Source: an uncultured Anaerolineales bacterium
Lineage (GTDB): Bacteria > Chloroflexota > Anaerolineae > Anaerolineales > UBA11858
NCBI GenBank assembly: GCA_964603385.1
Contig: CAZRUS010000006.1
Location: 33,540 to 97,539 of the forward strand
Reading direction: 5' to 3'
Length of the DNA stretch: 64,000 nt
Shown: piece by piece, positions 31,560 through 64,000 of the stretch
How the letters are laid out: every line of letters begins with the position of its first letter
How positions within the stretch are numbered: position 1 is the stretch's first letter
The notes under the pieces: model-generated
What the model was told of the DNA's origin: nothing
What the model saw: the letters and a program-made list of their open reading frames with translations, nothing else
The model's database searches: none
Translations under genes and position numbers: made by a program

Positions 31560-31560
31560 G

Positions 31561-45940: not shown

Positions 45941-46519
45941 TCACTGCTGAGAACCAGACCATTGGTAAGTTCCAGGAAGGGAGATGCCAAATCTGGTCAG
46001 GATCCGCCGGGCAGTTTGATCAACCAGGGTTTCCAGGGAATCTGGCCGGCTGTACCAGCTGGGCACCGGCGGCATAATCACCGCCCCGTTCTCCGCTGCT
46101 TCCAGCATGCGTTTCAGGTGCCCGGCATGGAGGGGAGTTTCCCGGACCACCAGAAGCAGGGGGCGCCCTTCTTTGAGCTGGACATCAGCCGCCCGGACCA
46201 GTAAATTGTCGCTGCAGCTGAGAGAGACCGCAGAAAGGGTTTTCATCGAGCAGGGCACAATGATCATCCCGTCTGCAGGATAGGAGCCGCTGGCAGGCGG
46301 GGCACCGATATCCTGGTACTCATACACACAATCCGCCAGGGCACGGACCTGATCCAGGTCATAGTCCGTCTCTTCCCGGAGGGTCCTTTCCCCGGGCGGA
46401 GAGATGATCAGCTGGGTTTCAAAATCAGCTGCCTCGGCTAACAGCTCGAGGATGCGGATGCCGTAAATCACCCCGCTGGCGCCGGTAATAGCAATCAGAA
46501 TCCGTTTGGGCTCATCCAT
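45941..46519 (-). CDS. ubiX: flavin prenyltransferase UbiX
   Basis: 192 aa. IAITGASGVIYGIRILELL and PCSMKTLSAV motifs. Confidence 0.85.
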   Translation of the reverse strand: MDEPKRILIAITGASGVIYGIRILELLAEAADFETQLIISPPGERTLREETDYDLDQVRALADCVYEYQDIGAPPASGSYPADGMIIVPCSMKTLSAVSLSCSDNLLVRAADVQLKEGRPLLLVVRETPLHAGHLKRMLEAAENGAVIMPPVPSWYSRPDSLETLVDQTARRILTRFGISLPGTYQWSGSQQ

Positions 46520-46597
46520 GGTATTCTTCCTGCCGGGAATAACACCGCCAATCCTTCCCGGACATGACTAGAAAAATCTGTCTGCCGTGATTCCCTT

Positions 46598-48502
46598 TTA
46601 TCCGGTATATGCTGCAATTCCCAGCTCTTCCAGTCTGTCCTGCTGGGGAACCCCTTTTTGATCCCAGCCCATGAATTGATAATACACCTGCAATCCTTCC
46701 GCCAGTTCGCCCCCAGGAACCGTTCTGCCGGCGATGGGCCCTTCCTCCACAGCATGATAGAGGCGGGTCGATAAGCGGTCCTCCTCATGAGAACTTCCCT
46801 CGCGGAGAACAAACAAGCGGGCCAGGGTGATGATCCGCCAGCCGATCCGGTTGACCTCATCCGCAGAAAAATCCTCCCATCCTCCGGCTGCCCGGAACGC
46901 TTCTACCAGATGCCGGTATTCGTAGGGATAAAAATGGCAGATCAGGGCAGCATCCATGACATGCCGCACAGCGGATTCATGGGCATAGGCTTTGACTTTT
47001 TCCTCCGAGATGCCAAACAGCGGCAGCGGGGTCTCGAAACCCATCTCCTCCAGCCGGCTGCAGACATCCGATCCCTCAAAATTGGCGAAGTTATCCAGCA
47101 TATTGTGCATGTGATCTGCCCCGGTCGGCGATACAGCGTAGCCCAGACCAGTGGTGTTCTTGAACCGGGGGTCATGCAGGGGGAGCTCCTGTTTGCGGGC
47201 GACGGCCAGGAAGGCCTCCGACCCGCCGCCGATCTCCTCTGCCATGCGGGCGCTGCCCTGGGCCATCAGATCGCCCAACCCTTCCCGGCGGCCAATCAGA
47301 TCAATCCCGCTGACCAACGCCTCAGCGCTGCCGAATTCGGGCAGGTAATCTCCCTCCCTGAGCAGTCCTTTCTCCACACATTCCATGGTGAAAGCAATGG
47401 TCGCCCCGGTGGAGATGGTATCCAGCCCGTATGCAGCGCACAGCTGATTGGCATTGGCGACCGCATGGGGATCATTGACTTCACAGAGGGACCCCAGGGC
47501 GCCGATGGACTCATATTCGGGACCGCCGTAAGGCTTGTCAATCTTGGGTTCGTCCGATTCGACAACGATTTTACAGCGCACCGGACACCCACTGCAGGTA
47601 TCCCTTTCCACAACCAGCGCTTGATGAAATTCATCTCCAGAAAGCGCACTGACGTCCTCCAGCACGCCCTTGAGGTAGTTTTTTACTGCCATGCCTCCGG
47701 AATCGTGATTGTACTGCACAGATCCAGAGGTCCCGTAATCAACAGCCCACTTCATGGAATCCTGGTAAGTGCTGGTGATCCATTTAAGCGTTTCCTTCAT
47801 TTCAGAGCGGTCCACCAGTCCGATCCGCTGATTTCCTCGCACGGCGACAGCTTTGAGCTTCTTGCTGCCCATAACCGCTCCCAGCCCGGAGCGTCCAGCC
47901 GCCCGATTAACATCATGCATAACCGCCGCAAAACGCACCTGATTCTCACCCGCCGGCCCGATCTGAGCTACCCGCACTCTGTCATCCCCCAGATCGGCCC
48001 GGATGATCTCCTCGGTTTCTGCAGTGAACTTTCCCCACAGATGGTCCGCGGATCTGAGAACGGCTCTTCCATTCTCAATGCTCAGATACACCGGGGAAGG
48101 GGATGCTCCGCTGATCACCAGGGCATCAAAACCAGCCCGTTTTAATTCATGTCCCCACCACCCGCCGGCTTCACTGGAGGCGAGGGCGTTGGTGAGGGGT
48201 GACTTGGCGCCCACAGCATGCCTGCCGGTCCCCGGCAGGACAGTCCCTGTCAGCAGCCCGGAGGCAAAAATCAGCAGGTTTTCCGGGCCGAGAGGATCTG
48301 CTCCTGCCGGCATTTCCGACAGCAAATAATGCAGAATCAGACCTCTTCCACCGATCAACAGCCGGTAAAAATCGCTCCCCTTTTCCTCATGCCAGATTTC
48401 CCCCTCGGAGAGATCGACCCGAAGGATCTTGCCGCTAAAAGCTTGTTTTCCAGCGGCAAAGGGCTCAGCATGGTCTACCTGGTAAACTATTTCCTGCTTC
48501 AT
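46598..48502 (-). CDS. tungsten/molybdopterin aldehyde:ferredoxin oxidoreductase (AOR family)
   Basis: About 634 aa. N-terminal GKILRVDLSEGEI, GGRGL and a 4Fe-4S Cys context (CSGCPVRC). The ATG at 48502 forms an ATGA overlap with the upstream MoaD-like stop. Confidence 0.85.
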   Translation of the reverse strand: MKQEIVYQVDHAEPFAAGKQAFSGKILRVDLSEGEIWHEEKGSDFYRLLIGGRGLILHYLLSEMPAGADPLGPENLLIFASGLLTGTVLPGTGRHAVGAKSPLTNALASSEAGGWWGHELKRAGFDALVISGASPSPVYLSIENGRAVLRSADHLWGKFTAETEEIIRADLGDDRVRVAQIGPAGENQVRFAAVMHDVNRAAGRSGLGAVMGSKKLKAVAVRGNQRIGLVDRSEMKETLKWITSTYQDSMKWAVDYGTSGSVQYNHDSGGMAVKNYLKGVLEDVSALSGDEFHQALVVERDTCSGCPVRCKIVVESDEPKIDKPYGGPEYESIGALGSLCEVNDPHAVANANQLCAAYGLDTISTGATIAFTMECVEKGLLREGDYLPEFGSAEALVSGIDLIGRREGLGDLMAQGSARMAEEIGGGSEAFLAVARKQELPLHDPRFKNTTGLGYAVSPTGADHMHNMLDNFANFEGSDVCSRLEEMGFETPLPLFGISEEKVKAYAHESAVRHVMDAALICHFYPYEYRHLVEAFRAAGGWEDFSADEVNRIGWRIITLARLFVLREGSSHEEDRLSTRLYHAVEEGPIAGRTVPGGELAEGLQVYYQFMGWDQKGVPQQDRLEELGIAAYTG

Positions 48503-48756
48503 GAACAACATCCTCCTGCAATTTGAGGGATTAACTGCACCGTATCCCCGGGCAATAATACCCGTGTCATATCCGCTGTTTTGCCATTAACCACCGCAAC
48601 AACCGGCTGATTAAGCTGAATCTGGCAGCTCTGCAGATAATCGTGTACGCTCTTTCCCGCCGGAACGTGGATGGCAAACAGCGGTCCCTGTTTGCTGACT
48701 TCAAAGCCCGGATCTGCCTCGACGAGCAGTCGGGGATCAACTTTTATGGTAACCAT
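48499..48756 (-). CDS. MoaD/ThiS-family ubiquitin-like sulfur-carrier protein with C-terminal GG-CCS extension
   Basis: 85 aa. GDTVQLIPQIAGG followed by CCS and the stop. Its ATG abuts the upstream gene's stop codon (TAAATG), and its own stop overlaps the AOR start (ATGA). Confidence 0.65.
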   Translation of the reverse strand: MVTIKVDPRLLVEADPGFEVSKQGPLFAIHVPAGKSVHDYLQSCQIQLNQPVVAVVNGKTADMTRVLLPGDTVQLIPQIAGGCCS

Positions 48757-49824
48757 TTATGTGTTGTAATTCCCTACCTCCCGGACCAGATCGAGAGCAA
48801 ACCGGTAGGTATCCAGTGTAGTCCCCGGCGGGATGGAATGATCACTGTGATATATATAACCGCCGCCAGCCATTGCCTTAGGTATTTTACTGCGAATTTC
48901 CTGCTCCAGGCCAGCCCGATCGTTGCTTTCAAAGAGCCGGGCATCGATGTTTCCCATCAGAGTGATCTGGTCTCCGTACTCTTTCTTCAGCTCCAGGACA
49001 TCCACCCCCGCCTTGACCTCCAGCGGGTGCAGACAATCCACACCAATCTCGATCAAATCCGGCAGAGTGCGGGTCATGTCACCGTCTGTATGGTAAATCA
49101 GGTGAGCTCCTGCACTGTGGGCTAATTCCACCAGCCGGGCATGGAACGGTTGCAACAGTTCCTGATAATGACGGGGAGAGAACAGGGGACCGTTTTTATA
49201 GGCAATATCGCCGTAAAGCCACAGTGCATCCGGTTGAATTTGCCGTGAGGCCAGGTCCTGCCAGGCGTCTTCAATCAACTTTGTACACGCCTGATATATA
49301 TCCTGCAGCCATGCTGGATCCTTGATCATCAGCTTGAGCTGCTCTTCAGGCCCGACAACACGCCAGCCGCACTCAAATGGATCCAGCATGGAAAGCACGG
49401 CGTACCGGTTTGCTTCCCGGATTTGCTGGTAGCGGGCTTCCAGGCTGGGCCAATCGATCCGGGAAGGATGATAATCCAATCTGGGGCGGAACTCTTGCTC
49501 CCATTGATCTCGAGATTCTACGGCAAAACCCAGCAGCCCCGGGGAGGTCTGCTTGGTGAGAAATTCCAGATTGGTCGTTCCCCAGCTGTCTTTGTAGAGC
49601 CTTTTCTCGGCTGTTTCTTCCAGGATGACCTCGGGGAGCAGAAAGGACTGCTCAAACCAGAACATATCCATATCCAGCTGAAAATAATCCATCAGGCTCT
49701 GACCCTGAGGGATCCCCTGCTGTCGAAAATCGCGCTCTGTATCCCACCAATAGGAATCATACATGGGGATGCGGTCCACCGGCTGTCGATCCAGGGTTCT
49801 GCGCACTCGCTCACGTGAATTCAT
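48757..49824 (-). CDS. URO-D-fold protein, paralog 4
   Basis: MNSRERVRRTLDRQPVDRIPMYD N-terminus, close to paralog 3. Core IYHTDGD (Asp in place of Cys). TGATG overlap with the upstream amidohydrolase gene. Confidence 0.65.
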   Translation of the reverse strand: MNSRERVRRTLDRQPVDRIPMYDSYWWDTERDFRQQGIPQGQSLMDYFQLDMDMFWFEQSFLLPEVILEETAEKRLYKDSWGTTNLEFLTKQTSPGLLGFAVESRDQWEQEFRPRLDYHPSRIDWPSLEARYQQIREANRYAVLSMLDPFECGWRVVGPEEQLKLMIKDPAWLQDIYQACTKLIEDAWQDLASRQIQPDALWLYGDIAYKNGPLFSPRHYQELLQPFHARLVELAHSAGAHLIYHTDGDMTRTLPDLIEIGVDCLHPLEVKAGVDVLELKKEYGDQITLMGNIDARLFESNDRAGLEQEIRSKIPKAMAGGGYIYHSDHSIPPGTTLDTYRFALDLVREVGNYNT

Positions 49825-51119
49825 CAATCCAGACCTGCTCTCTTTCTTAATTGCCTGATCGCTCTTCGGGCCTGGTCGAGGAGATCGGCTTCATCCAAGA
49901 CCTTGACCTCCCCATCCAGGAGCAGTATCTCCCCAGCCACCACGACAGTCTCCACAGCTGCGCCCTGGGCGCCGAGGATCAGCGCCGATGAGACGTCTTG
50001 CACCGGAACCACCCCGGGGTGGTCGAGATTGACAATGACCACATCCGCCGGCGCTCCTGCGGTCAGTTTTTTCCCGGCCAGAGCCAGATGCAGCACCTGT
50101 TCCGGGGGGAGCAGGGTGGCATCCTGCCGGGAAATGCGGGCGATCATCAAGGCACTTTTCGCCGTCTCCCAGAGATCCTGATTGTCGTTGCTGGCCGGTC
50201 CGTCCGTACCCAGCCGTACGGGAATTCCTGCCTGCAGCATCTCCGGGATGGGCGCTAGGCCGGATCCCAGAACGGCATTGCTGACCGGGCAGTGAACCAC
50301 AACTGCCCGATGCTCGGCCAGCTGTTCAATTTCCTGCTCATTCACCCAGACAGCATGGACAAGCTCCGTGGATCCATCCAGCACCTCGATCTCCTTCAGC
50401 CAGTGGACCGGGCGGCGATCATACGCCTCCAATGACATCCGGACTTCGTCCCGGGTCTCAGCAACATGGAAGTGGGTCGTACCGCCGTAATCGGTGATCA
50501 GCTGATGGCTGCGCTGGAGCATTTCGGCAGAGCAGCGCCACAGCGCCAGCGGTCCATTGGCAATGGAAATCCGGGGGTGATGCTGCCACTGCACCTGAAG
50601 GCGGTCCAGATCGGCGAGGATTTTTTCCGGCTGCTCTGCCCCGCTGCCCAGATCAGCCCAGGACCGGGCCAGGGTGAACCGCAGACCAACCCGGTCTGCT
50701 GCCTGACAGACCGCATCGGTATGAGCCTCAGAGGCGGTAATTTTATGGTGGTTGGTGAGACTGATCGCCCCGCAGCGCAGATTTTCAATTAAACCCACCA
50801 GGGCAGCCAGATAGAGCTCCTCCGGGCTGATCTCCCGCTGCAGAGGCCAGATGACCTCCTTCAACCACTCCAGCAGCGATCGCCCCCCCGCCAGCCCCCT
50901 CATGAAGGTTTGACTGAGGTGGGTATGGGCGTTCGTCAATCCCGGGACAAGGGCTTTATTTTCAGCATCGAGGACTGTTTCGGATTCCTCTACCAGCTGC
51001 CGCGGAGGGCTTCCCGGGGAAACGTCCCGGATTTGATCCTTATCTATCACCACATATCCGGGATCAAGCCAGCCCTTTTCCCCGTACACCGCACCGCCAT
51101 GGATCAGCAAGTCAGCCAT
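49824..51119 (-). CDS. COG0402 amidohydrolase (SsnA/MtaD/pterin-deaminase-like), paralog of 27482-28840
   Basis: PGLTNAHTHLSQTFMRGLAGGRSLLEWL, HVAET and HAVW. Same motif order as the other copy. Confidence 0.75.
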   Translation of the reverse strand: MADLLIHGGAVYGEKGWLDPGYVVIDKDQIRDVSPGSPPRQLVEESETVLDAENKALVPGLTNAHTHLSQTFMRGLAGGRSLLEWLKEVIWPLQREISPEELYLAALVGLIENLRCGAISLTNHHKITASEAHTDAVCQAADRVGLRFTLARSWADLGSGAEQPEKILADLDRLQVQWQHHPRISIANGPLALWRCSAEMLQRSHQLITDYGGTTHFHVAETRDEVRMSLEAYDRRPVHWLKEIEVLDGSTELVHAVWVNEQEIEQLAEHRAVVVHCPVSNAVLGSGLAPIPEMLQAGIPVRLGTDGPASNDNQDLWETAKSALMIARISRQDATLLPPEQVLHLALAGKKLTAGAPADVVIVNLDHPGVVPVQDVSSALILGAQGAAVETVVVAGEILLLDGEVKVLDEADLLDQARRAIRQLRKRAGLD

Positions 51120-51128
51120 TAAGCCGCC

Positions 51129-53423
51129 TCAACTCTTATTGATCTCAGATTTCAACCACTCGGCCCGGATGGGAAGCTGATAGGCCCGAACCCCGGTGGC
51201 GTGGTAGACCGCATTGGCAATCGCCGGGGCGGTGGCGATCATCACCGGCTCGGCCAGATTCTTGGCTCCAAAGGGTCCTTCCGGAAGAGTGGTTTCGACA
51301 TAGGTGGTCTCAAACTCCGGCATGTCCAGTGTGCTGGGTATGGTGTAGTGGGAAAATCTCAATTTCCCAGGAACACCATCCTGGTAGTCAAACCCCTCGG
51401 TGAGGGCATACCCCAATCCTTGGGCGATCCCGCCCAGCATCTGACCCCGGGCTCCGTGCGGAAAGAGGATCTTTCCAGCGTCATGCGCCGACCAGATCTT
51501 TTCCACCCTGACCCTTCCCGTTGCCTTTTGAACCGCGACCAAGGCGGCCTGGGCCCCGAAGCTGTAGGTAAAATAAGGGATCCCGGTCCCGGTTTCAAAG
51601 TCCCAGTGAATCTCCGGAATCTGCCAGTAGCCGCGCTCATAGAGCTGAAAGCCCAGCTGAAAAGCGTGCTCGACCACCTTGTCAAAGGGAACCGGTTCTT
51701 CATCCGGTCCAATAAACGCTTCCTGGTGGCGGTGGATCTGCTCCGGATCACAATCGAGGAGATCGCTGGCAGCCATCACCAGTGATTGATGGAGTTTTTG
51801 GGCAGACACCCGGACAGCGTTGCCGCCGACAATGGAAGCCCGGGAAGCTACCGTCGGCCCGGATTCCAGCGCTGTCTGTGTGTCCGGGCGCAGCATGCAG
51901 ATCCGCTGCGGGTCCACGCCGAGAACTTCGGCGGCTATCAGGGTGAACACCGTCCGACTCCCCTGGCCGTAATCCGTCAGGCCGGACTGCAGGGTGACGC
52001 TGTGATCCCGTTCGATCCCCAGGGTGGCCCGGGCATAATCCAGACCCTCACCACCCAGTCCACTGCCGTGAAAATAACAGGCAAAACCCAGACCGCGGAA
52101 TACACCGTTCTTATTCCGCTCCTGCTCCAGCTGCTGCCTGATTGTATCCCACGCTGACCGCTCCCGGACCCAACTGATGCACTTGGCCAGCCCATTCTCA
52201 TGAGTGAGCTGATTCCCGGTAAAGGCGCGGTCTCCTTTCTGAAGGCAATTTTTAAGCCGGAAATCAATCGGGTCCTCCCCCATTTTTTCGGCAGCTTCGT
52301 CAATCATCATTTCTGAGGCGGCCGCTGCCATGGTGTTTCCGAAGCCCCGGAAAGCGCCGGAATAGCCGTTGTTGGTGTAAACCACATCGGCATCGACGGT
52401 CGCCGCCTGATAACGGTAAACGCCTAATAAGTGCATTGAGGCCCGGAAAGCAGCCAATGTGGTCATAGAAGCATAGCCGCCGCTGTCGGCCAGCAGGTAG
52501 CCTTTGCCGGCCAGGATATGGCCTTTTTCGTCCACGCCGATCTCCAGGTCAATCCTCCCTGCCTGGCGCTTGTAGGACATCAGCAGTGATTCCTCCCGAT
52601 TGAGGATCAGGCGAACCGGCTTCCCGGTCAGCAGGGCCAATTTTCCCGCCTGCGCTGTGAGCTGGTAAACATGATCATCCTTGCCGCCAAATGATCCCCC
52701 CACCGGGGGCTGAATGATCCGCACCTGGTCCGTGTTCATCTCCAGCACATCGGCTGCGTTATCACGGTTGATATGGGGGCTCTGGTTGTTGGCAAAAATG
52801 GTCAGGGAGCCGTCCGGCTCTGGAAAGGCAACCACCCCTTCAGTCTCAATGCAGGCATGCTCCTGGTGAGCAAAATGAAATGAACCTGAAAAGCGGTGAG
52901 CAGCTGATTCCAGCAGCTCCTCCGGGTCTCCATTGCGGACGATCTGGCGGTCACAGAGATTCCCCTGCCCCTGCGGGGCATCAAGCGGAATCAGGACAGC
53001 CTCCGGATCCAGGGCCCGGGCAGGGTCGGAGACCACCGGCAGCGCTTCCAATTCCAGGTCGATCGCCTGGACGCCAGCCGCAGCAGCTTCCGGGGTATCA
53101 GCAGCCACCACAGCGATGGGATCCCCCTGATAACGGACTTTTTGGTAGACCAGAATATACGCATCCCTGACCGGCCAACCAAATGAACCCTGATCCCGGA
53201 AGTCATCGGAGGTGATCACCGCCCGAACACCGGGAATCTTTTCGGCGGGGGAAACATCCAGTTTGCGAATTCTGCCGTGGGGAATTGGGCTCAACAGCAG
53301 TTTGGCATGCAGCATGCCCGGAAAAACCAGATCGGCCACATAACGGGCCTTGCCCATCACTTTTTCCAGCGCATCCACAGCCGTGCTGGATGGATTACCG
53401 ATAAAACGAGGCTGTTTATCCAT
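51129..53423 (-). CDS. xanthine dehydrogenase-family molybdopterin-binding subunit
   Basis: About 764 aa. Aldehyde oxidase/XDH a/b-hammerhead and Mo-binding domains (GGSFGGK, GFGN, GxxxAExxMIA-type C-terminus). Start MDKQPRFIG at 53423 overlaps the 2Fe-2S gene by 8 nt. Confidence 0.85.
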   Translation of the reverse strand: MDKQPRFIGNPSSTAVDALEKVMGKARYVADLVFPGMLHAKLLLSPIPHGRIRKLDVSPAEKIPGVRAVITSDDFRDQGSFGWPVRDAYILVYQKVRYQGDPIAVVAADTPEAAAAGVQAIDLELEALPVVSDPARALDPEAVLIPLDAPQGQGNLCDRQIVRNGDPEELLESAAHRFSGSFHFAHQEHACIETEGVVAFPEPDGSLTIFANNQSPHINRDNAADVLEMNTDQVRIIQPPVGGSFGGKDDHVYQLTAQAGKLALLTGKPVRLILNREESLLMSYKRQAGRIDLEIGVDEKGHILAGKGYLLADSGGYASMTTLAAFRASMHLLGVYRYQAATVDADVVYTNNGYSGAFRGFGNTMAAAASEMMIDEAAEKMGEDPIDFRLKNCLQKGDRAFTGNQLTHENGLAKCISWVRERSAWDTIRQQLEQERNKNGVFRGLGFACYFHGSGLGGEGLDYARATLGIERDHSVTLQSGLTDYGQGSRTVFTLIAAEVLGVDPQRICMLRPDTQTALESGPTVASRASIVGGNAVRVSAQKLHQSLVMAASDLLDCDPEQIHRHQEAFIGPDEEPVPFDKVVEHAFQLGFQLYERGYWQIPEIHWDFETGTGIPYFTYSFGAQAALVAVQKATGRVRVEKIWSAHDAGKILFPHGARGQMLGGIAQGLGYALTEGFDYQDGVPGKLRFSHYTIPSTLDMPEFETTYVETTLPEGPFGAKNLAEPVMIATAPAIANAVYHATGVRAYQLPIRAEWLKSEINKS

Positions 53424-53901
53424 GCGCTTTTTCCTTGCTGTTCCGCTGGTCCGCGGTATATTCGATGGCCTCGAAAATTTGCTCATATCCTGTGCAGCGG
53501 CACAGATTCTTAGCCAGATGCTCCCGGATTTCCTCCCGACTCGGCTGGGGGTTGCTCCGCAGCAGCACTTCCGCAGCGATGATCATCCCCGGCGTGCAGT
53601 AGCCGCACTGGGTGGCGCCAAATTCGACAAAGGCCTGCTGGAGATCATTGGGGCCGCCGTCTTCGCCGTGAATCCCTTCAATGGTGACGACCTCTGCTCC
53701 CTCCAGCTGGCCTGCCTTTATCAGGCAGGACCGGGCCAGTTTGCCATTAAAAATAACTGAACAGGCTCCGCAGTCTCCCAACTCGCAGCCGGGTTTTGCC
53801 CCGGTCAGTCCCAGCTTCTGGCGCAGAATGATCAGCAGGGTATCTGCGGAAGCCGCTTCTACCGCCACCTGGGATCCATTTACCGTCATGTGAATTTCCA
53901 T
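53416..53901 (-). CDS. [2Fe-2S]-binding small subunit of the Mo hydroxylase (CoxS/XdhC-type)
   Basis: GCELGDCGACSV (plant-type cluster), CGYCTPGMI and C-terminal NLCRCTGY motifs. Probable start MEIHMTVNG at 53901. Confidence 0.85.
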   Translation of the reverse strand: MEIHMTVNGSQVAVEAASADTLLIILRQKLGLTGAKPGCELGDCGACSVIFNGKLARSCLIKAGQLEGAEVVTIEGIHGEDGGPNDLQQAFVEFGATQCGYCTPGMIIAAEVLLRSNPQPSREEIREHLAKNLCRCTGYEQIFEAIEYTADQRNSKEKAHG

Positions 53902-58775: not shown

Positions 58776-58776
58776 C

Positions 58777-59628
58777 TTAGACAGGCCCTCCAAAGGTGCC
58801 GATCCCGTAGGCGAACAGGAGCACAAAAGCGGCGATAAAAAATATTCCAAAGAACGCCATCAGAGCGTAATCCTGCCAGCCCAGCACGGATTCGTGCAGA
58901 TAGGTCCGATCTGCGCTGCCCGAAAAGGCTTTCGACTGCAGCACGACTTCCAGCTGCTGGGATTTCACCAGCGCACCCAGGATCAGCGGCACGGCTACTT
59001 TGGCATAGACCCGGACCCGCTTGATCGGCCCCATTTTTTCCATCGCCAGACCACGCAGACGCTGGGCTTCGATGATCATATTGAACTCCTGGATCAGCAG
59101 CGGAAAAAAGCGCAGCGTGGAGCTGAAAATGAAAGCGATCTTATAGGGGATTCTGGCTTTGACCATGCCGACGATCATGTTGTTCACCTCGGTAGTAAAC
59201 ACACCCAGCGGGATGATCAGCGTCAGGGTCAGGGTCTTAAAGATGACATTAAAGCCGTAGGTAAGCCCTTCCACCGTTGCGGAGCCGCCGCCAATTAACC
59301 ACCAATTTTCCGGGAAGGTAAACAGCGGTGTCAGGGTATTCGTATCCAGCAGCGCCATCACTTGATCCCGGTTAAAAAAGGCATGGGTGAGCAGCAGCAG
59401 CAGGTAAAACGGCAGCAGAATGAGCAGAATCGTACGAATGTAATTCCACTTCACGCCGACCAGCAGGCAGGCGGCGATAATAATCAGGGCCATGACAAAC
59501 TGCAACAGCGGTGATTCCCAGGCAAAGGCCACCACAGTTACGGTGGCCATCATGAACAGCTTGGGCCGGAAATCCAGCCGGGAAAAGAAAGAATCCCGCT
59601 CAACGGTTTGAAACTTCATCATACTCAT
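58777..59628 (-). CDS. ECF transporter transmembrane (T) component, CbiQ family
   Basis: 283 aa polytopic protein. Coupling-helix region ARIPYKIAFIFSSTLRFFP...EAQRLRG. ATGA overlap with the ATPase gene. Confidence 0.75.
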   Translation of the reverse strand: MSMMKFQTVERDSFFSRLDFRPKLFMMATVTVVAFAWESPLLQFVMALIIIAACLLVGVKWNYIRTILLILLPFYLLLLLTHAFFNRDQVMALLDTNTLTPLFTFPENWWLIGGGSATVEGLTYGFNVIFKTLTLTLIIPLGVFTTEVNNMIVGMVKARIPYKIAFIFSSTLRFFPLLIQEFNMIIEAQRLRGLAMEKMGPIKRVRVYAKVAVPLILGALVKSQQLEVVLQSKAFSGSADRTYLHESVLGWQDYALMAFFGIFFIAAFVLLFAYGIGTFGGPV

Positions 59629-61355
59629 CGCGGTACCCTCACATCTTTAGCATAGTAGTCGGCAATCTCTGCAGGGGTCAGCAGGGGGGGAAAGTCCCCG
59701 CTTAAGGACTGCATCTTCTGCGACAGGTGTACAGCCTGGGGCGGAGTCAGATAAGTGCTCTGAAGGATATCGGTAGAATGGTAGGCGGTGCGAATATCCT
59801 CATCAAGCAGGATGGTGCCTTTCCCCATAACAATCACCCGCTCGGCATAATCCGGCATCAGGTAGAGGTGGTGGGTGATAACAATCACCGTCTTCCCCAT
59901 TTGATGCAGTTTGCGGCTGATCTCCAGGATGTAGCTGGCACCCAGATAATCCTGGCCCGTGGTGGGTTCATCAAAAATAATGATCTCTGGTTTCATGGCC
60001 AGGATTGCTCCGATGACCACCCGGGCCCGGTCGCCTTTTGGCAGAGCCAGGGGATGTTCATCACGCACATCCATCAGACCCATCGCTTCCAGGCTCTCCA
60101 CGGTTCTGGTCTCAACTTCCTCCTCGCTGTAATCCAGATTGCGGAGGGCAAACCCAATTTCATCCCCGACCGAGGTGCTGAAAATCTGGTTGTCGGGATT
60201 TTGAGCCACATACCCGATCCGCCGGGCTAATTCACTGACAGAAAGGTCAGTCGTGCTGGTGCCGCCAATCCGGACCAATCCTTCCGTAGGTTCGAGCAGC
60301 TTCAGGAAATGCTTCACCAGGGTGCTTTTTCCGGCCCCGTTCTGACCGATGATCAGCACATACTCCCCTTCTTTGATCTCCAGGGAAACACCGCCGAGCG
60401 CCTTGGTGCCGTCCGGATATATATGGGAGAGATTTTCCACAGCGATCAATGGCTCGCCCAGCTTTTCTTCCTCCTCCGGAATGGCAAAATCCGGATTGGA
60501 AGCTTCTTTGGCCAGGTCCGGCAGGAATTCTTCCGCGTCTTTCATCCGAACAGGGATTTCTGGAACCTCGACACCCTGCTGCTGGATGGAGTAAAAGGTG
60601 CGGGCAACCTGGGGTGGACGAAGAGAATTTTCCTCCAGCAGCTCAATCTGGGAATAGATCTCATCCGGTGTTCCAACGGCCATGATCTTCCCATGGGAAA
60701 GCATGACAATGCGGGAGGCATAGGTGGCCACCTCTTCGGCGGAATGACTGGCCATCACAATCGTCATTCCCAGCTCCTGATTGAGCTCATAAGCGGTCTG
60801 AAAGACTTCCTCCCCGCCAATGGGGTCCAGCTGGGAGGTGGGCTCATCGAGCACAAGCAGGTCAGGCTGAACCGCCATGGCGGCAGCAATCGCCAAACGC
60901 TGCTTCTGACCGCCGGACAATTCGTGGGGGTGTTTCAACTCCGAACCCTCTAATCGAACCGCTTCCAGCACCTGCGGAATGCGGCGAATGATTTCGTCCC
61001 GGGGGACCTTGAGGTTCTCGAGGGCAAAGGCAATTTCATTTTCCACCGAAGTGGAAATCAACTGCGTCTCAGGATCTTCGAATACCTGACCGACGTGATT
61101 GGCCATTACGCTGATGGGATGCTCCAGGGTATCCATCCCTGCGGTGGTGATCCTGCCAAAAAAACGACCGCCATAAAATTGGGGAACAATGCCGTTTAGT
61201 GCGTTGCACAGGGTGGTTTTTCCGGCCCCGGTGGGGCCGATGATGCCGAGAAATTCACCCCGATGGATCTCCAAACAGATCTCACAGAGAACAAATTCCC
61301 TGGAACGGGGGTATTTATAAGAAACATCTTCCAGTGTGGAAATAATTTCTGCCAT
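59625..61355 (-). CDS. ECF transporter fused tandem ATPase (EcfA-EcfA', YkoD-like)
   Basis: 576 aa with two ABC cassettes: Walker A GPTGAGKTT and GQNGAGKST, signature LSGGQKQR, and Walker B LLVLDEPT/IIIFDEPT. Confidence 0.9.
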   Translation of the reverse strand: MAEIISTLEDVSYKYPRSREFVLCEICLEIHRGEFLGIIGPTGAGKTTLCNALNGIVPQFYGGRFFGRITTAGMDTLEHPISVMANHVGQVFEDPETQLISTSVENEIAFALENLKVPRDEIIRRIPQVLEAVRLEGSELKHPHELSGGQKQRLAIAAAMAVQPDLLVLDEPTSQLDPIGGEEVFQTAYELNQELGMTIVMASHSAEEVATYASRIVMLSHGKIMAVGTPDEIYSQIELLEENSLRPPQVARTFYSIQQQGVEVPEIPVRMKDAEEFLPDLAKEASNPDFAIPEEEEKLGEPLIAVENLSHIYPDGTKALGGVSLEIKEGEYVLIIGQNGAGKSTLVKHFLKLLEPTEGLVRIGGTSTTDLSVSELARRIGYVAQNPDNQIFSTSVGDEIGFALRNLDYSEEEVETRTVESLEAMGLMDVRDEHPLALPKGDRARVVIGAILAMKPEIIIFDEPTTGQDYLGASYILEISRKLHQMGKTVIVITHHLYLMPDYAERVIVMGKGTILLDEDIRTAYHSTDILQSTYLTPPQAVHLSQKMQSLSGDFPPLLTPAEIADYYAKDVRVPR

Positions 61356-61377
61356 AGCTGTCCCTTCTTGGGGGCAG

Positions 61378-61405
61378 CCAGAGGGCAGATTGCTCTGCCC
61401 TCTGG
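61378..61405 (-). other. intercistronic perfect hairpin between the S-component and ATPase genes
   Basis: 12-bp stem ccagagggcaga (61378-61389) / tctgccctctgg (61394-61405) with a 4-nt loop. No U-tract on the coding (minus) strand. Confidence 0.5.
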
Positions 61406-61418
61406 TTTGCCAGATTGT

Positions 61419-62204
61419 TTAGTAAATGGCGTGCTCAGGTTTGACCAGCCCGATCGCCCGCAAACCGGCAATGACACCACCGCCGATAACTACACCGACA
61501 GCAGCGCGCATCACGTTCTCAAAGGGGATCAACGGGATCAACATGGTCCAGATCTCCTCAGGCCAGTTGAACATGTGGTAGGTGATTGCCGACTGGCAGA
61601 CATGGGCGAGCCCAAAGACTGTCCAGGTGCCCAGCGCCAGGCCGGCGACGACCAGACCCACCTGTTTGCTGTGGATCCATTTGGCGAACAGTGTCCGGGT
61701 GGGGAGAGCAAAGAGGATCAGCGCCGACCAATCCAGGAAGGACCCGGCGATAACCGGCCACAGCCCAACACCGTTCAGGAAGAGTGCCCGGCCGGTGAAG
61801 TATAAAAATGAAACCAGGGCATAGATCCAAACCGGCAGCCACCAGCTCTTGCGCTCCTCACCGATGACCATGGTTCCGGCTGCAAAGGAAGCCACCACGG
61901 CCCCCAGAATGGTCACTACAGGAACACCGGCGGTATGCGGTGCCAGAAAGACAGCGATCAGAGCACCGATTCCGGATGAGACAGCACCAGCGATTGGTCC
62001 CAGCACCCAGCCGACCAGGCCGAGGATGCCCTGAGACATCGGGAAGCTGCCGCCCGAAGCCAGAACGACGGACATCGGGAAAAAGGAGAGAGCCACGACC
62101 ACAGCAGCCAGGACGACGATGTAAGCTACGGGCGCGCCGTCAATCGCTGCGCCGCCTAAAAATTCAACCTGCCGCTCTTCCCCACGGGGTGTTTCTTCAG
62201 ACAT
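61419..62204 (-). CDS. polytopic membrane protein, candidate substrate-capture (S) component of the ECF transporter
   Basis: 261 aa with about 7 hydrophobic helices. It occupies the position of ykoE in an S-AA'-T (ykoEDC-like) order. GGAGG RBS. No match to an S-component family I can name. Confidence 0.5.
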   Translation of the reverse strand: MSEETPRGEERQVEFLGGAAIDGAPVAYIVVLAAVVVALSFFPMSVVLASGGSFPMSQGILGLVGWVLGPIAGAVSSGIGALIAVFLAPHTAGVPVVTILGAVVASFAAGTMVIGEERKSWWLPVWIYALVSFLYFTGRALFLNGVGLWPVIAGSFLDWSALILFALPTRTLFAKWIHSKQVGLVVAGLALGTWTVFGLAHVCQSAITYHMFNWPEEIWTMLIPLIPFENVMRAAVGVVIGGGVIAGLRAIGLVKPEHAIY

Positions 62205-62361: not shown

Positions 62362-63339
62362 TTATGAAATTAAAAATCGGACAGCCTCCAGGATGCTCTC
62401 CACATCGGGAAGCACATCCTTTTCCAACACGGGACTGTACGGTAACGGTACGTTTTTGGCGCCAATTCTCATAATCGGGCCATCCAGATATTCAATGCCC
62501 TCCTCAGCGATCACCGCAGCGATTTCCGCTCCCGGTCCGGAGCGCCGATGGGCCTCCGCAGCCACCACCAGCCGGCTGGTTTTCCGCACCGAGGACAGCA
62601 AAGTCTCCTTATCAAGAGGAACCAGGGTGCGGGGATCGACCACTTCCATGCTGATTCCTTCCTTTTCCAGCACATCGGCCGCCTCCAGTGCTTTTCCGAC
62701 CATGCTGTTGACAGCAATCACCGTGACATCCCTGCCCGCCCGAACGACGGCTGCCTGGCCGAAAGGCACCTGGAAATCTTCCTCCTCCGGCACCGGTCCG
62801 CTCACCCCGTAGAGCATTTTATGCTCGAAGAACAGCACGGGGTCATTCCCCCGCAGGGCTGTTTTCAGGAGCCCTTTGGCATCGGCCGGGGTGGACGGTA
62901 CGGCAATTTTCAAACCAGGAACGTTCATGAACCAGGATTCCGGGCTCTGGGAATGCTGGGCGCCGGCAGAACCCGGTGCCCCGGTGGTCACCCGGATGGT
63001 CAGAGGCACATTGGCTTTCCCACCGCTCATAAAGCGGGCTTTGGCCACCTGATTGACGATCTGGTCCCCGGCGCACATCAAAAAGTCGCCAAACATGATC
63101 TCCACAATGGGACGCATACCGACCATGGCAGCGCCCAATCCGGCCCCGACGATAGCGGCCTCGCTGATCGGGGTATCCAGAATTCTCTCCTCCCCGAATT
63201 CCTCCAGCATCCCGGCAGAGACCCCCCAGACCCCACCAAAGGTGGCGACGTCCTCCCCCATCAAGAAAACCTCCGGGTTGGAGCGCATTTCTTCAGACAT
63301 CGCTTCTCGAATCGCTTCTGAATAAGTAATTTCCTTCAT
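62362..63339 (-). CDS. 2-oxoacid/acetoin dehydrogenase E1 beta subunit
   Basis: 325 aa. Transketolase-like pyrimidine-binding and C-terminal domains (EEFGEERILDTPISEA, GGKANVPLTIR). Confidence 0.9.
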   Translation of the reverse strand: MKEITYSEAIREAMSEEMRSNPEVFLMGEDVATFGGVWGVSAGMLEEFGEERILDTPISEAAIVGAGLGAAMVGMRPIVEIMFGDFLMCAGDQIVNQVAKARFMSGGKANVPLTIRVTTGAPGSAGAQHSQSPESWFMNVPGLKIAVPSTPADAKGLLKTALRGNDPVLFFEHKMLYGVSGPVPEEEDFQVPFGQAAVVRAGRDVTVIAVNSMVGKALEAADVLEKEGISMEVVDPRTLVPLDKETLLSSVRKTSRLVVAAEAHRRSGPGAEIAAVIAEEGIEYLDGPIMRIGAKNVPLPYSPVLEKDVLPDVESILEAVRFLIS

Positions 63340-63348
63340 GATTTCACC

Positions 63349-64000
63349 TTAAAACACCAACTGGTTGTGAGTATCGTCGTACACCCCCTGCAGGGCTTCT
63401 TCTTTGGTTGGCTGGGGAGCAGCGGCAGCAAATTCCACCGCTTCATCCAGCTCCTGCTGCAGTTCTTGGTCAATTTCATTCAAGTCCGATTCGGGAACCA
63501 GGTCTTCCTTGAGCAGGTAGGCCCGGAAAGTATCAATGGCATCGCGTTCTTTCCATTCTTCCAGCTCGCCCTCCGGTCGGTAGACCATGGGATCTCCTTC
63601 ATAGTGCCCGCGGTAGCGGTAAGTCTTGGCCTCAATCAAGGTGGGGCCTTTGCCGTCCAGAGCCCGCTTGCGGGCTTTGACGGCTGCTTCATAGACGGCC
63701 AGGACATCATTTCCGTCCACGCTGACGCCGGGGAACCCGTAGCTCTCGGCGCGGAGAGCCAGATCCTGAATGGGAGCCTGCTTGTGCTGTGGGGTGCCTT
63801 CCCCGTAGAGGTTGTTCTCGCAAAAGAAGATCACCGGCAGCTCCCAGAGACCGGCCATGTTAGCTGATTCGTGAAAAGTTCCCTGGTTGATGGCCCCATC
63901 GCCGAAGAAGGTCAGTGAGACGCGCTCTTCCTTCCTCATTTTGAAGGCCAGGCCTGCCCCCACCGCGGCCGGAAAGCCGCCGCCGACAATCCCGTTAGCG
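63349..64000 (-). CDS. 2-oxoacid/acetoin dehydrogenase E1 alpha subunit (TPP-binding), 5' end outside window
   Basis: The frame stays open to the window edge. TPP motif region FFGDGAINQGTFHESANMA...FFCENNLYG. Confidence 0.85.
   Translation of the reverse strand, partial: ANGIVGGGFPAAVGAGLAFKMRKEERVSLTFFGDGAINQGTFHESANMAGLWELPVIFFCENNLYGEGTPQHKQAPIQDLALRAESYGFPGVSVDGNDVLAVYEAAVKARKRALDGKGPTLIEAKTYRYRGHYEGDPMVYRPEGELEEWKERDAIDTFRAYLLKEDLVPESDLNEIDQELQQELDEAVEFAAAAPQPTKEEALQGVYDDTHNQLVF

Follow-up and report, generated by a model that had tools for sequence, protein, structure and literature searches.

What would an uncultured Anaerolineales bacterium degrade with a gene array in which a carbamoyltransferase, a molybdenum (Mo) hydroxylase, and an amidohydrolase stand among genes for an importer, a pterin-binding protein, and a 2-oxoacid dehydrogenase? 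The array lies in a 64,000-nucleotide stretch of contig CAZRUS010000006.1 (assembly GCA_964603385.1), hereafter called the window, where 17 consecutive open reading frames (ORFs) on the minus strand fill positions 45941 to 64000. At about even confidence, we favor the view that this island is a Chloroflexota variant of the reductive urate (2,8-dioxopurine-type) pathway, in which largely different proteins carry out the anaerobic breakdown of a purine-type ring. Its core logic is like that of the reductive urate pathway, and its gene content places it outside that type of cluster. Three things appear to be new: the carbamoyltransferase family, together with the connection of this family to the anaerobic catabolism of heterocycles in Chloroflexota and Acidobacteriota; an alternative back end of the pathway; and a family of energy-coupling factor (ECF) S components coupled to a methyltransferase (MeTr) or to FolC. 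The anaerobic breakdown of purines was solved only between 2023 and 2025, and then for gut Proteobacteria and Firmicutes alone. In digesters, sediments, and mats, Anaerolineae rank with the most abundant fermenters, and the necromass of nucleic acids and cofactors supplies much of the nitrogen and carbon in these habitats.

A conserved gene array and its carbamoyltransferase

Read from its upstream end, the array encodes E1 alpha and E1 beta of a 2-oxoacid dehydrogenase, a putative S component, a fused ECF ATPase (EcfAA'), EcfT, a Hyi-like barrel, a MeTr-like protein, E2, the carbamoyltransferase, a short-chain dehydrogenase/reductase (SDR), the [2Fe-2S] and molybdopterin subunits of the Mo hydroxylase, an amidohydrolase, a URO-D-like protein, a ThiS-like protein, an aldehyde:ferredoxin oxidoreductase (AOR), and UbiX. 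The starts of the E2, Hyi-like, [2Fe-2S], and Mo genes were reset to match those called independently on metagenome contigs of 98% identity (L122/L123; L numbers denote related loci), which begin at the S gene, the region upstream of E1 alpha being outside their reach. With the adjusted starts, the 16 junctions measure 9, 157, 63, -4 (ATGA), 1, -1, 31, 24, 22, 10, -8, 9, -4, 0, -13, and 78 nt, respectively (negative values are overlaps), so that at 13 of them the genes overlap or are no more than 31 nt apart, and three gaps are wider. A preliminary description, made from the sequence alone, had reported 17 minus-strand ORFs with larger gaps of 157, 78, and 63 nt, and all of these lie exactly where it put them. 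It had also seen an array built around a catabolic-looking carbamoyltransferase, a Mo/FeS hydroxylase, and amidohydrolases, which domains and synteny bear out. Pfam agrees with its domain calls for all families, while the 261-aa membrane protein that it called S-like is without a Pfam hit.

One genome per species was scanned with the carbamoyltransferase, which returned 80 loci, and synteny was judged by searching these loci with every window gene in a tblastn matrix. The loci come mostly from Anaerolineales, Promineifilaceae, Ardenticatenaceae, Pelolinea (the culturable Pelolinea submarina MO-CFX1, L032, has a related cluster), and Leptolinea and, at 65 to 70% identity, also from Thermoanaerobaculaceae, other Acidobacteriota, and Elusimicrobia; homologs of the enzyme number in the thousands, the nearest (72 to 100% identical) being from Chloroflexota/Anaerolineae metagenome bins. 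Contig CAZUMA010000001 (L005/L089, uncultured Anaerolineales) holds all 17 genes in identical order at 53 to 87% amino acid identity, with one additional AXE1-family esterase gene between EcfT and Hyi (L089 positions 13505 to 14470) and with xylA downstream. Versions with fewer genes or another arrangement are found in about 20 loci, including L002 to L014, L036, L038, L043, and L064. Among them, L006, L007, L011, L036, and L043 have nearly the full gene set; the ECF genes and the MeTr-like gene are missing from L002 to L004, L010, L013, L038, and L064; and L008, L009, L012, and L014 are rearranged, with E1/E2 divergent. The gene order does recur in relatives, as the view taken in the preliminary description requires, and the array is a real, inherited unit with a conserved core and accessory parts.

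Directly upstream of E1 alpha, L089 and L002 encode, in order, an HTH_31/Cupin_2 regulator, a glycoside hydrolase family 31 (GH31) glycosidase, a dihydropyrimidinase/D-hydantoinase, and an SsnA-like amidohydrolase; the SsnA-like gene is found upstream of E1 alpha also in the ECF-bearing L006 and L011. The dihydropyrimidinase scores 510 bits with TIGR02033 (cutoff, 393), and its L002 copy is 42% identical to Escherichia coli HyuA. SsnA is the best model for the upstream amidohydrolase of L089 and L090, but at 256 to 259 bits, below the cutoffs of 444 and 455. In L089, divergent genes for a UbiD decarboxylase and a luciferase-like oxidoreductase lie ahead of this set. None of the dihydropyrimidinase, SsnA-like, regulator, UbiD, and luciferase-like genes is within the window. 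The usual partners of a purine cluster had been described as absent, which is right for the window itself; since relatives carry HyuA-like and SsnA-like genes right upstream of E1 alpha, that absence is partly an effect of the window edge.

The carbamoyltransferase (54666..55724, minus strand; 352 aa; OTCace_N and OTCace) scores below the curated cutoff of every named family in NCBIfam: 262 bits against 288 for N-acetylornithine carbamoyltransferase (AOTCase), 248 against 281 for ornithine carbamoyltransferase (OTCase), and 174 against 453 and 162 against 500 for the YgeW models NF005538 and TIGR03316. A phmmer search of PDB gave 184 bits for OTCase, 175 for AOTCase, and 160 for YgeW. The carbamoyl-phosphate motifs SxRT (SLRT), HPxQ (HPFQ), and HxLP (HCLP) are kept. 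In an alignment to Pyrococcus furiosus OTCase, YPKAWCPQ replaces YTDVWASMG, the ornithine motif DxxxSMG thus being lost, and there are insertions at the 80s loop, the 120s loop (10 residues), and a proline-rich loop (SPSIHKPRAVP); the extended 80s loop has no Trp. Identity to E. coli YgeW is about 35%, and the phmmer alignment to 3q98 spans query residues 3 to 312 only.

Knotted carbamoyltransferases are marked by a proline-rich loop and an extended 120s loop without DxxxSMG, and YgeW-type enzymes by a length of about 396 aa, additional helices at both termini, and a 240s loop lengthened by two helices (PMC4581275). All three marks of the knotted group are found in the window enzyme, which resembles AOTCase, N-succinylornithine carbamoyltransferase (SOTCase), and YTCase/YgeW in its carbamoyl-phosphate motifs, its 120s and proline-rich loops, and the Lys at the start of the 240s region (YPKAW). 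It differs from AOTCase and SOTCase in the extended 80s loop without Trp, and from YgeW in length and in having neither the additional helices at the termini nor the long insertion of the 240s loop. Neither the profile cutoffs nor DxxxSMG or an 80s-loop Trp puts it among the ornithine or N-acetylornithine enzymes. Judged by sequence, the enzyme is a distinct family with knotted-type signatures that is neither OTCase, AOTCase, nor YgeW, and the YgeW-type assignment made earlier has to be given up, the AOTCase and OTCase models scoring higher than either YgeW model. Its orthologs are 65 to 87% identical across Chloroflexota, Acidobacteriota, and Elusimicrobia, and many of the nearest named homologs are called ornithine or N-acetylornithine carbamoyltransferase, an annotation that calls for correction.

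The neighborhoods of this family are consistently catabolic and were sorted into classes. Class A is the window type. Class B (L001 and similar loci) has several amidohydrolases including Amidohydro_2, a fused FeS-Mo enzyme, and SDRs, and continues with transaldolase, aldehyde dehydrogenase, and transketolase. Class C (L090 and similar loci) has a dihydropyrimidinase, Fer4, AOR, and ThiS genes, an SsnA-like gene, and a PreA/UacX-like DHO_dh+Fer4 reductase; a luciferase-like gene often follows the carbamoyltransferase immediately. In all, luciferase-like genes flank the carbamoyltransferase in 14 to 15 loci. Class D (Thermoanaerobaculaceae, other Acidobacteriota, and others) has a carbamate kinase about 50% identical to YqeA, together with SsnA-like (34%), YgfK-like, HyuA-like, M20 YgeY-like (42%), and PALP genes. 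A second carbamoyltransferase paralog, 36 to 42% identical to the window enzyme and 27 to 36% to YgeW, is present in eight loci (L040, L044, L073 to L076, L082, and L084) and adjacent to the first in several; six of the eight belong to class D, and in those six a carbamate kinase is nearby. Such pairs would fit a diureido intermediate both of whose ureido groups are phosphorolyzed. Besides, 5'-nucleotidase-like genes lie inside some of the clusters. It is possible that this family couples the release of ring nitrogen to ATP formation in Chloroflexota and Acidobacteriota.

Candidate ring-modifying enzymes and a possible reductive purine route

The Mo hydroxylase consists of a [2Fe-2S] subunit (53416..53901, minus strand; Fer2 and Fer2_2), which scores 166 to 168 bits with XdhC/PucE-type models, below cutoff, and a molybdopterin subunit of the xanthine oxidase family (51129..53423, minus strand; Ald_Xan_dh_C, MoCoBD_1, and MoCoBD_2). 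The latter scores 486 bits with the XdhA model and 475 bits with that of 4-hydroxybenzoyl-CoA reductase (4-HBCR) alpha, both below cutoff; its best PDB match is 4-HBCR (311 bits), and on sequence grounds it belongs to the XdhA/PucD/4-HBCR part of the family. The domains, the catalytic Glu (AEPV), and the Fer2/Fer2_2 subunit are those of xanthine oxidase-family hydroxylases, and an Asp follows GGSFGGK. The Arg in AFRGFG is also conserved, which is the purine-binding Arg of bovine xanthine oxidoreductase and corresponds to Gln in E. coli XdhD. The enzyme had been described as XdhD-type, and the XdhD/DOPDH type, a fused FeS-Mo polypeptide with a YgfM FAD partner in E. coli or a selenium-dependent XdhAC in Clostridium, does not accord with its separate FeS and Mo subunits, its 27% identity to XdhD, and its Arg in place of Gln. 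No FAD subunit is encoded in the cluster, and a ferredoxin-type partner is therefore likely.

The COG0402 amidohydrolase (49824..51119, minus strand; Amidohydro_1) belongs to the Tm0936/MtaD deaminase group. An SsnA type, as proposed earlier, finds no support in its scores of 173 and 169 bits with the SsnA models NF005540 and TIGR03314 (cutoffs, 444 and 455), SsnA ranking ninth among the models; the chlorohydrolase/MtaD model scores 298, 5'-deoxyadenosine deaminase 266, and 8-oxoguanine deaminase 237 bits. Its PDB matches are 4dyk, 4gbd, 4dzh, 4f0r, TM0936, 3hpa, and 2paj, of which we take the first five to be adenosine-, guanine-, or oxoadenine-type deaminases of the Tm0936/MtaD group; 8-oxoguanine deaminase and isoxanthopterin deaminase score lower. 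The SDR (53912..54643, minus strand; adh_short_C2, 191 bits) carries the NADPH-type motif TGX3RXG (TGAAERVG). Its best NCBIfam model is the pteridine reductase NF006598 at 216 bits, below the cutoff of 288, followed by generic SDR models at 196 and 191 bits, and PTR1 and FolM are absent from its top PDB matches.

With these enzymes, the proposed route would run as follows. The Tm0936-type deaminase would turn an amino-purine into an oxo-purine, and the two-subunit Mo/FeS hydroxylase, having no FAD subunit, may then adjust the oxidation state of the ring, presumably via ferredoxin. The ring could be dearomatized by the TGX3RXG SDR of the window or by the luciferase-like enzyme of relatives, and the rings would be opened by the SsnA-like hydrolase and the dihydropyrimidinase, whose genes are seen only in relatives, upstream of E1 alpha. 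To judge from the neighborhoods of its orthologs, the carbamoyltransferase would phosphorolyze a ureido compound to carbamoyl phosphate, and ATP would be formed by a carbamate kinase encoded elsewhere. In what is the weakest step, the Hyi-like isomerase, the pyruvate dehydrogenase (PDH)-like E1/E2, and AOR might handle the carbon skeleton in place of YgeY/YgeX. UbiX would serve the UbiD decarboxylase of the island, and the inserted module of ECF importer and MeTr-like methyltransferase would import and demethylate folate as a cofactor, not as a catabolic substrate. It is plausible that an oxygen function removed in the E. coli route is kept here and that the C3 fragment leaves as an aldehyde or 2-oxoacid (tartronate semialdehyde/hydroxypyruvate), not as diaminopropionate. 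Departure at that level would account for the presence of an isomerase, a tungsten-type AOR, and a 2-oxoacid dehydrogenase where YgeY/YgeX might be expected, and these enzymes are a candidate back end in place of diaminopropionate lyase.

The purine reading rests mainly on the gene context of class D, where nearly all functions of the published pathway are found with the present carbamoyltransferase family in the place of YgeW. In that pathway, YgeW together with YqeA converts 2,3-diureidopropionate into a mono-ureido product with formation of ATP (PMC12507026; bioRxiv 10.1101/2025.04.24.650524), and carbamate kinase is encoded outside the cluster in some pathway-bearing organisms (bioRxiv 10.1101/2025.04.24.650524). 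A Chloroflexota variant has been glimpsed, not described, since it was remarked that Chloroflexota SsnA neighborhoods have a luciferase-family reductase instead of YgfK/UacX (PMC12507026). Also in favor of the purine reading are the HyuA-like and SsnA-like genes upstream of E1 alpha in relatives, the class C neighborhoods, a carbamoyltransferase with knotted-type insertions and without DxxxSMG, the nearest solved relatives of the deaminase, and a Mo subunit that retains the catalytic Glu and an Arg of the kind found in purine hydroxylases. Compared with the reductive urate cluster (ygeW-ygeX-ygeY-hyuA-yqeA ... ygfK-ssnA-ygfM-xdhD of E. coli and the variants of Clostridium sporogenes and C. difficile), the island would share the logic of a Mo hydroxylase, a dearomatizing reductase, ring openers of the SsnA and hydantoinase/dihydropyrimidinase types, and a carbamoyltransferase yielding carbamoyl phosphate. 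It differs in that the carbamoyltransferase is of another family (about 35% identical to YgeW; 352 versus 396 aa) and the Mo enzyme is split, without an FAD subunit and unlike XdhD at the substrate Arg/Gln position; YgeX, YgeY, YgfK/UacX, and YqeA are missing, and E1/E2, the Hyi-like protein, AOR with the MoaD-like protein, the URO-D-like protein, UbiX (with UbiD), the Tm0936-type deaminase, and the ECF/MeTr genes are additional. The earlier statement that the array differs from the described E. coli/Clostridium cluster stands, whereas the YgeW, SsnA, and XdhD assignments made with it do not hold up in the family tests.

Several observations weigh against the purine reading. The window has no carbamate kinase, YgeX, YgeY, YgfK/UacX, HyuA, or SsnA ortholog; analogs of only XdhD and YgeW are present in it, and YgeX, YgeY, and YqeA are absent from class A as a whole, the UacX-like gene being found in class C and carbamate kinase, YgeY-like, PALP, and YgfK-like genes in class D. 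The upstream SsnA-like and dihydropyrimidinase genes are known from relatives only, and the carbamoyltransferase scores higher with AOTCase and OTCase models than with those of YgeW. The occurrence of the ECF/MeTr module in several cluster arrangements (including L114) hints at a link closer than cofactor supply. Besides, the published pathway needs no 2-oxoacid dehydrogenase, Hyi-like isomerase, AOR, URO-D-like protein, or UbiX/UbiD, and UbiX/UbiD, the Mo hydroxylase, the deaminase, and the TGX3RXG SDR would also fit a pteridine route (PMC12391406).

The roles given above to E1/E2, the Hyi-like protein, AOR, and UbiX, as well as that of the URO-D-like protein, are those that we infer. E1 alpha leaves the window, which holds its C-terminal 216 aa (63349..64000, minus strand; PF00676 E1_dh, 225 bits; TIGR03182 PDH E1 alpha, 233 bits), 79% identical to the full-length 343-aa L089 gene. 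E1 beta (62362..63339, minus strand; Transket_pyr and Transketolase_C) is PDH/branched-chain 2-oxoacid dehydrogenase (BCKDH)-like; it scores 388 bits with NF006667 (cutoff, 321), and in PDB it matches the Thermus 2-oxoacid dehydrogenase (284 bits), human PDH (280), and BCKDH (226), which does not separate PDH from BCKDH. E2 (55749..57089, minus strand; 446 aa; PF00364, PF02817 twice, and PF00198) is a dihydrolipoyl acyltransferase with one lipoyl domain, two E3-binding stretches, and a catalytic domain, all NCBIfam E2 equivalogs scoring below cutoff, and no E3 is encoded in the cluster. E1/E2 stay linked to the carbamoyltransferase through rearrangement, being divergent in L008, L009, L012, and L014 and inverted in L064. 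The Hyi/OtnI-like xylose-isomerase-fold TIM barrel (57978..58775, minus strand; PF01261), a putative keto-aldo isomerase or epimerase, scores 90 bits with hydroxypyruvate isomerase and 89 bits with 2-oxo-tetronate isomerase, far below cutoff, and matches 3ngf and YgbM weakly; its gene is present in 10 related loci.

The AOR-family W/Mo-pterin enzyme (46598..48511, minus strand; AFOR_N and AFOR_C, 258 and 343 bits) is paired with a small ThiS/MoaD-like protein (48499..48756, minus strand; PF02597, 27 bits). AOR-family genes occur in 17 related loci, including clusters without a Mo hydroxylase, and the ThiS-like family in 9; in several related clusters the ThiS-like gene stands with an AOR-family gene (read directly in L002 and L090). 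The pair recurs in classes A and C, and class C has two AOR paralogs where there is no Mo hydroxylase. UbiX (45941..46519, minus strand) is a clear flavin prenyltransferase (NF004685, 231 bits against 188; TIGR00421, 223 against 109) whose UbiD partner is absent from the window. UbiX makes prenylated FMN for UbiD and hence needs one, and a UbiD gene is in the island of nine or ten relatives, among them L089, L112, L008, L009, L012, L014, L040, L044, and L064 (TIGR00148, 322 bits against 245). An attempt to identify the L089 UbiD as a xanthine-8-carboxylate decarboxylase through plasmid homologs was uninformative, the best hits (39% identical) lying in clusters that we take to be hmf (furan-degradation) clusters.

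The URO-D/MtaA-fold protein (48757..49827, minus strand) forms a distinct subfamily; PF01208 covers its C-terminal half only, and phmmer found no match in PDB. Its AF2 model (pLDDT, 96) was matched by Foldseek to HemE and to the Methanosarcina mazei MtaA-like 4ay7 at TM scores of 0.68 to 0.75, and this fold search cannot separate a decarboxylase from a methyltransferase. H246, E270, D276, D295, H327, D329, and H330 are invariant and Cys ligands are missing, H-T-D-G and H-S-D-H standing in their place; the His-x-Cys...Cys arrangement is what we take to be the MtaA zinc site. With MtaA/CmuA models at 35 to 48 bits (cutoffs, 235 to 400), an MtaA/MtbA zinc methyltransferase or HemE identity was rejected on profiles and ligands, the fold alone being common. 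A 48%-identical homolog of Planctomycetota (L120) sits among ten URO-D paralogs in an island with a corrinoid protein, RACo, methylenetetrahydrofolate reductase (MTHFR), a Pterin_bind protein, and MttB; the amidohydrolase of that island proved unrelated to the window deaminase. The family thus hints at substrate-specific corrinoid-dependent (de)methylases, perhaps for methylated sugars. Corrinoid-dependent methyl transfer to tetrahydrofolate (THF) is conceivable and would explain the folate module described below, although no corrinoid protein was found in the island. Two further URO-D paralogs of the window (PF01208; 34708-35754 and 41691-43208, plus strand) lie among glycoside-hydrolase-like genes, and ORF 39451-40629 (plus strand) is similar to an unannotated gene embedded among the L120 paralogs. 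The paralog at 41691-43208 carries an HSCGN motif, which the island copy does not.

A separable importer and methyltransferase module

The preliminary description had suggested that an imported N-heterocycle might enter the catabolic route through the ECF importer, and this is probably not the case, since S-EcfAA'-EcfT occurs outside such clusters with a MeTr-like gene or FolC. The putative S component (61419..62204, minus strand) is a 261-aa membrane protein without a Pfam or NCBIfam hit that is recognized by its context. All 469 homologs are without a name, four have a PF12822 ECF_trnsprt hit, and the gene is always followed by EcfAA' and EcfT; L007 carries two tandem paralogs (2166 to 4177), 70% and 82% identical to the window protein. 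The AF2 model is an all-helical bundle (pLDDT, 78.6) for which Foldseek returned no significant PDB match, the best target-normalized TM scores being 0.55 for TmRibU and 0.41 for FolT. A FolT-type S component is not indicated, with no sequence-family hit and with E values above 2 and TM scores of 0.25 to 0.41 for FolT 4z7f. From its context, the PF12822 homologs, and the weak resemblance to TmRibU and FolT, we assign the protein as the S component of a new family.

The fused ATPase (EcfA-EcfA'; 59625..61355, minus strand) has two PF00005 ABC_tran domains, and its orthologs, 66 to 76% identical, adjoin the S gene in more than 30 loci. EcfT (58777..59628, minus strand) scores 98.6 bits with PF02361 CbiQ and 73 bits, below cutoff, with TIGR02454. 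PF02361, two PF00005 domains, and an invariantly adjacent S gene make this a dedicated ECF transporter. Like other dedicated (group I) systems (ECF-FolT, ECF-RibU, and CbiMNQO), it has S, fused A-A', and T genes in one unit, a conserved stem-loop after the S gene, and a small, all-helical membrane S protein; it differs in that this protein has 261 aa versus about 165 to 200 aa and neither a Pfam family nor a significant structural match. To our knowledge, the coupling of an ECF S component to a MeTr-like gene or to FolC has not been described.

The MeTr-like protein (57121..57978, minus strand; PF00809, 61 bits) is a putative pterin-binding methyltransferase of the methyl-THF:corrinoid, MT2-like kind, with 177 bits in NF005719 (cutoff, 259). 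Its best PDB matches (E, about 1e-23) are MeTr 2yci/1f6y and 4o0q, the last deposited as a dihydropteroate synthase and believed by us to be a Desulfitobacterium MT2. Four positions are conserved in the alignment (sLDt, vNSi, vvDa, and GigNa), presumably the pterin-contacting Asp/Asn/Asp/Asn of MeTr. The protein is like MeTr (AcsE)/MT2 methylcorrinoid:THF methyltransferases in its Pterin_bind fold, its best PDB matches, and the four putative pterin-contacting residues, and a URO-D-fold protein, a possible MT1/MtaA analog, is in the island as in MeTr/MT2 demethylase systems. Unlike these, the island has no corrinoid protein, RACo activase, or MTHFR, and the gene is coupled to an importer instead of a demethylase set; in the island no B12-binding protein turned up, and a tblastn search of the window with one B12-binding query (from L120) likewise gave none.

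The ECF and MeTr-like genes are demonstrably a separable module. S-EcfAA'-EcfT-Pterin_bind stands alone in L086, far from any carbamoyltransferase cluster, and is found also in L098, L103, L107, and L110; the MeTr-like gene is accessory and is lacking in L002-type and L006 clusters. In L088 and L092 the unit reads S-AA'-T-FolC, and in L006, which has no MeTr-like gene, a FolC gene closes the cluster. On the basis of this linkage to FolC and MeTr alone, the module probably takes up folate, presumably 5-methyl-THF, and then demethylates it for cofactor salvage, which is the simplest reading because FolC traps folates by polyglutamylation and MeTr binds methyl-THF. The family may therefore represent a folate (5-methyl-THF) salvage system for folate-dependent anaerobes. 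Within catabolic clusters the module occurs in several arrangements, including in the class C locus L114 and beside the cluster's GH31 gene, and this recurrence makes some functional tie likely. A lipoate or thiamine importer for E1/E2 was set aside, because MeTr or FolC accompanies the module where E1/E2 do not. There is a minor possibility of a corrinoid importer, a BtuF-family binding protein adjoining the module in L088. An orthologous GH31 glycosidase (54 to 65% identical) is found both at the head of the carbamoyltransferase island (L089 2561 to 4936; L002 603 to 3002) and right beside S-AA'-T-MeTr modules (L103, L107, L109, L110, and L114), which may mean a glycosylated substrate or cofactor.

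Between the S and ATPase genes lies a GC-rich stem-loop without a U-run (61378..61405, minus strand), with an 11-bp perfect core and 12 predicted pairs; the surrounding 70-nt stretch 61356-61425 folds at -34.7 kcal/mol (z = -5.5 versus shuffles). Compensatory changes are seen in the 98%-identical contig L122, and a strong hairpin of differing sequence is predicted at the same spot in most related loci with a readable spacer (L005, L007, L011, L036, L043, L086, L094, L100, L101, L105, L106, L110, and L122). It is probably an mRNA stability or processing element by which S would be made in excess of the energizing module, as is presumably typical of operons with such a ratio of products. The 220-nt leaders of the S genes of about 35 loci, read by eye, have only a ribosome-binding site in common and no riboswitch candidate, and Rfam gave no riboswitch or other known RNA in the whole window at gathering thresholds or in the 157-nt gap at E values up to 5. 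Scans with consensus promoters and terminators did not exceed shuffled controls. A terminator-like hairpin with a T-run (55766-55791, minus strand) sits in the final codons of E2, immediately ahead of the carbamoyltransferase gene; with 25 such hits against 18 expected by chance, it may mean nothing.

Rival readings and neighboring genes

One other explanation is catabolism of a pteridine or folate, which we hold to be unlikely. Here the ECF system would import the pterin or folate as substrate, and the MeTr-like protein and the pteridine-reductase-like SDR would handle it; the COG0402 enzyme would act as pterin deaminase and the Mo enzyme as lumazine dehydrogenase; UbiD/UbiX would decarboxylate a xanthine-8-carboxylate-like intermediate; E1/E2, Hyi, and AOR would remove the C6 side chain or the carbons of the pyrazine ring; and the SsnA-like hydrolase, dihydropyrimidinase, and carbamoyltransferase would finish the resulting purine or pyrimidine. 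Cupriavidus LA-1 converts pterin via lumazine, 6,7-dihydroxylumazine, and xanthine-8-carboxylate to xanthine with a pterin deaminase, a Mo lumazine dehydrogenase, an amidohydrolase-fold (Amidohydro_2) isomerase, and UbiD plus UbiX (PMC12391406). Three of these four functions are in the island, together with a pterin-binding protein, a pteridine-reductase-like SDR, and an importer, and the TGX3RXG motif and best model of the SDR, the four residues taken as pterin binding in the MeTr-like protein, and UbiX in the window with UbiD in the island of 9 to 10 relatives all point the same way. So do the varied arrangements in which S-AA'-T is linked to the clusters and to GH31, and class B, in which Amidohydro_2, transketolase, transaldolase, and aldehyde dehydrogenase replace E1/E2, Hyi, and AOR in a manner that would fit a polyol side chain. 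However, the core cluster exists without importer or MeTr (L002, L013, and L038), FolC beside the importer argues that folate is retained as a cofactor and not destroyed, the lead of the SDR over generic models is small, with PTR1/FolM missing from its top PDB matches, and the deaminase is nearer to what we take to be Tm0936-type adenosine/guanine deaminases than to isoxanthopterin deaminase 2paj (144 versus 117 bits). The UbiD of L089, as noted, is closest to those of apparent hmf plasmid clusters, and no Amidohydro_2 (DHLI) homolog is found in class A clusters. Compared with Cupriavidus cluster I (PDA, a three-subunit LuDH, DHLI made of Amidohydro_2 alpha/beta plus a GTPase, and XCDC (UbiD)/UbiX; PMC12391406), the island shares a COG0402-type deaminase, a xanthine oxidoreductase-family Mo hydroxylase, and UbiX (UbiD in relatives), whereas class A has no Amidohydro_2 isomerase, LA1_0143-like GTPase, or FAD subunit (L002 and L089, read gene by gene, contain neither an Amidohydro_2 nor a GTPase gene); the island is moreover of anaerobe type (AOR and ferredoxin-type partners) and, unlike the aerobic cluster, has ring-opening carbamoyltransferase, SsnA, and dihydropyrimidinase genes. 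In its boldest form this reading is a complete anaerobic route, which we regard as a long shot: a pteridine (folate fragment, pterin, or pterin glycoside) imported as fuel via the new S component would be handled by the MeTr-like protein and the TGX3RXG reductase. After deamination and hydroxylation by the Mo enzyme, its ring would be contracted to give a purine carboxylate, which UbiD/UbiX would decarboxylate. The SsnA-like hydrolase, the dihydropyrimidinase, and the new carbamoyltransferase would then open the rings and conserve energy in carbamoyl phosphate, while E1/E2, Hyi, and tungsten AOR oxidized the side-chain or pyrazine carbons. If true, it would join the pterin-to-xanthine and reductive purine pathways, both of 2025, in one operon of an uncultured anaerobe.

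It might also be asked whether there is one pathway at all. The array could be a same-strand mosaic of independent units (a PDH-like complex, a folate-salvage ECF module, a heterocycle core of carbamoyltransferase, SDR, Mo/FeS enzyme, and deaminase, AOR with the MoaD-like protein, UbiX, and xylAB) conserved by descent in one clade, which we think improbable. Long co-directional gene runs are common in Anaerolineae genomes, and this run extends past UbiX to 19 genes with xylA and xylB (43236-45902, minus strand; TIGR02631, 585 bits, and TIGR01312, 586 bits) at gaps of 38 and 15 nt, xylA being likewise placed in L005 and the function of both being plainly unrelated to the island. The ECF/MeTr module is separable, the largest gaps (157 and 78 nt) coincide with module borders, and classes B, C, and D have neither E1/E2 nor Hyi, URO-D, or UbiX. 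On the other hand, the linkage of E1/E2 to the carbamoyltransferase survives divergence and inversion (L008, L009, L012, L014, and L064), AOR and ThiS-like genes recur with the carbamoyltransferase in class C despite another gene order, UbiD recurs in classes A and C, and translational coupling is predicted across module borders (EcfT-Hyi, 1 nt; Hyi-MeTr, -1; UROD-ThiS, 0; ThiS-AOR, -13). Very improbable is the idea that the carbamoyltransferase is an anabolic, arginine-type housekeeping enzyme (AOTCase/OTCase-like) in an incidental neighborhood. Its two top profile scores, the names "ornithine" and "N-acetylornithine carbamoyltransferase" given to its homologs in their sources, and its very high conservation (65 to 87% across phyla) would agree with this, but all scores are below curated cutoffs, DxxxSMG and an 80s-loop Trp are lacking, the neighborhoods read gene by gene hold no arginine-biosynthesis genes, the neighbors are carbamate kinase, cyclic amidohydrolases, Mo/W enzymes, and reductases, and paralog pairs occur in 8 loci, with carbamate kinase nearby in the six of class D. 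A placement with OTCase/AOTCase had been named in the preliminary description as a finding that would speak against its own view; the profile scores are ambiguous in this regard, and on motifs and neighborhoods we reject such an identity. The reductive purine reading is the one that we retain as preferred.

A second operon-like run on the minus strand (19216-34176) encodes a sugar-type ABC transporter (SBP_bac_1/8 and two BPD_transp_1), a 5'-nucleotidase-like protein, an Amidohydro_1 protein 26% identical to E. coli GuaD, two SDRs, an FGGY kinase, a 2-hydroxyacid dehydrogenase, a DeoC aldolase, an HTH_3/Cupin_2 regulator 36% identical to the regulator of the L089 carbamoyltransferase island, an MFS transporter, and an aminotransferase. 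Its pair of 5'-nucleotidase-like and amidohydrolase genes is also found inside the carbamoyltransferase clusters L008, L009, L012, and L014, and the run may be a nucleotide/nucleoside scavenging unit that feeds the same catabolism. Besides, Anaerolineae and Ardenticatenales were enriched in caffeine-fed anoxic sediment (bioRxiv 10.64898/2026.01.06.697959), which proves nothing on the island and is compatible with purine fermentation by these groups.

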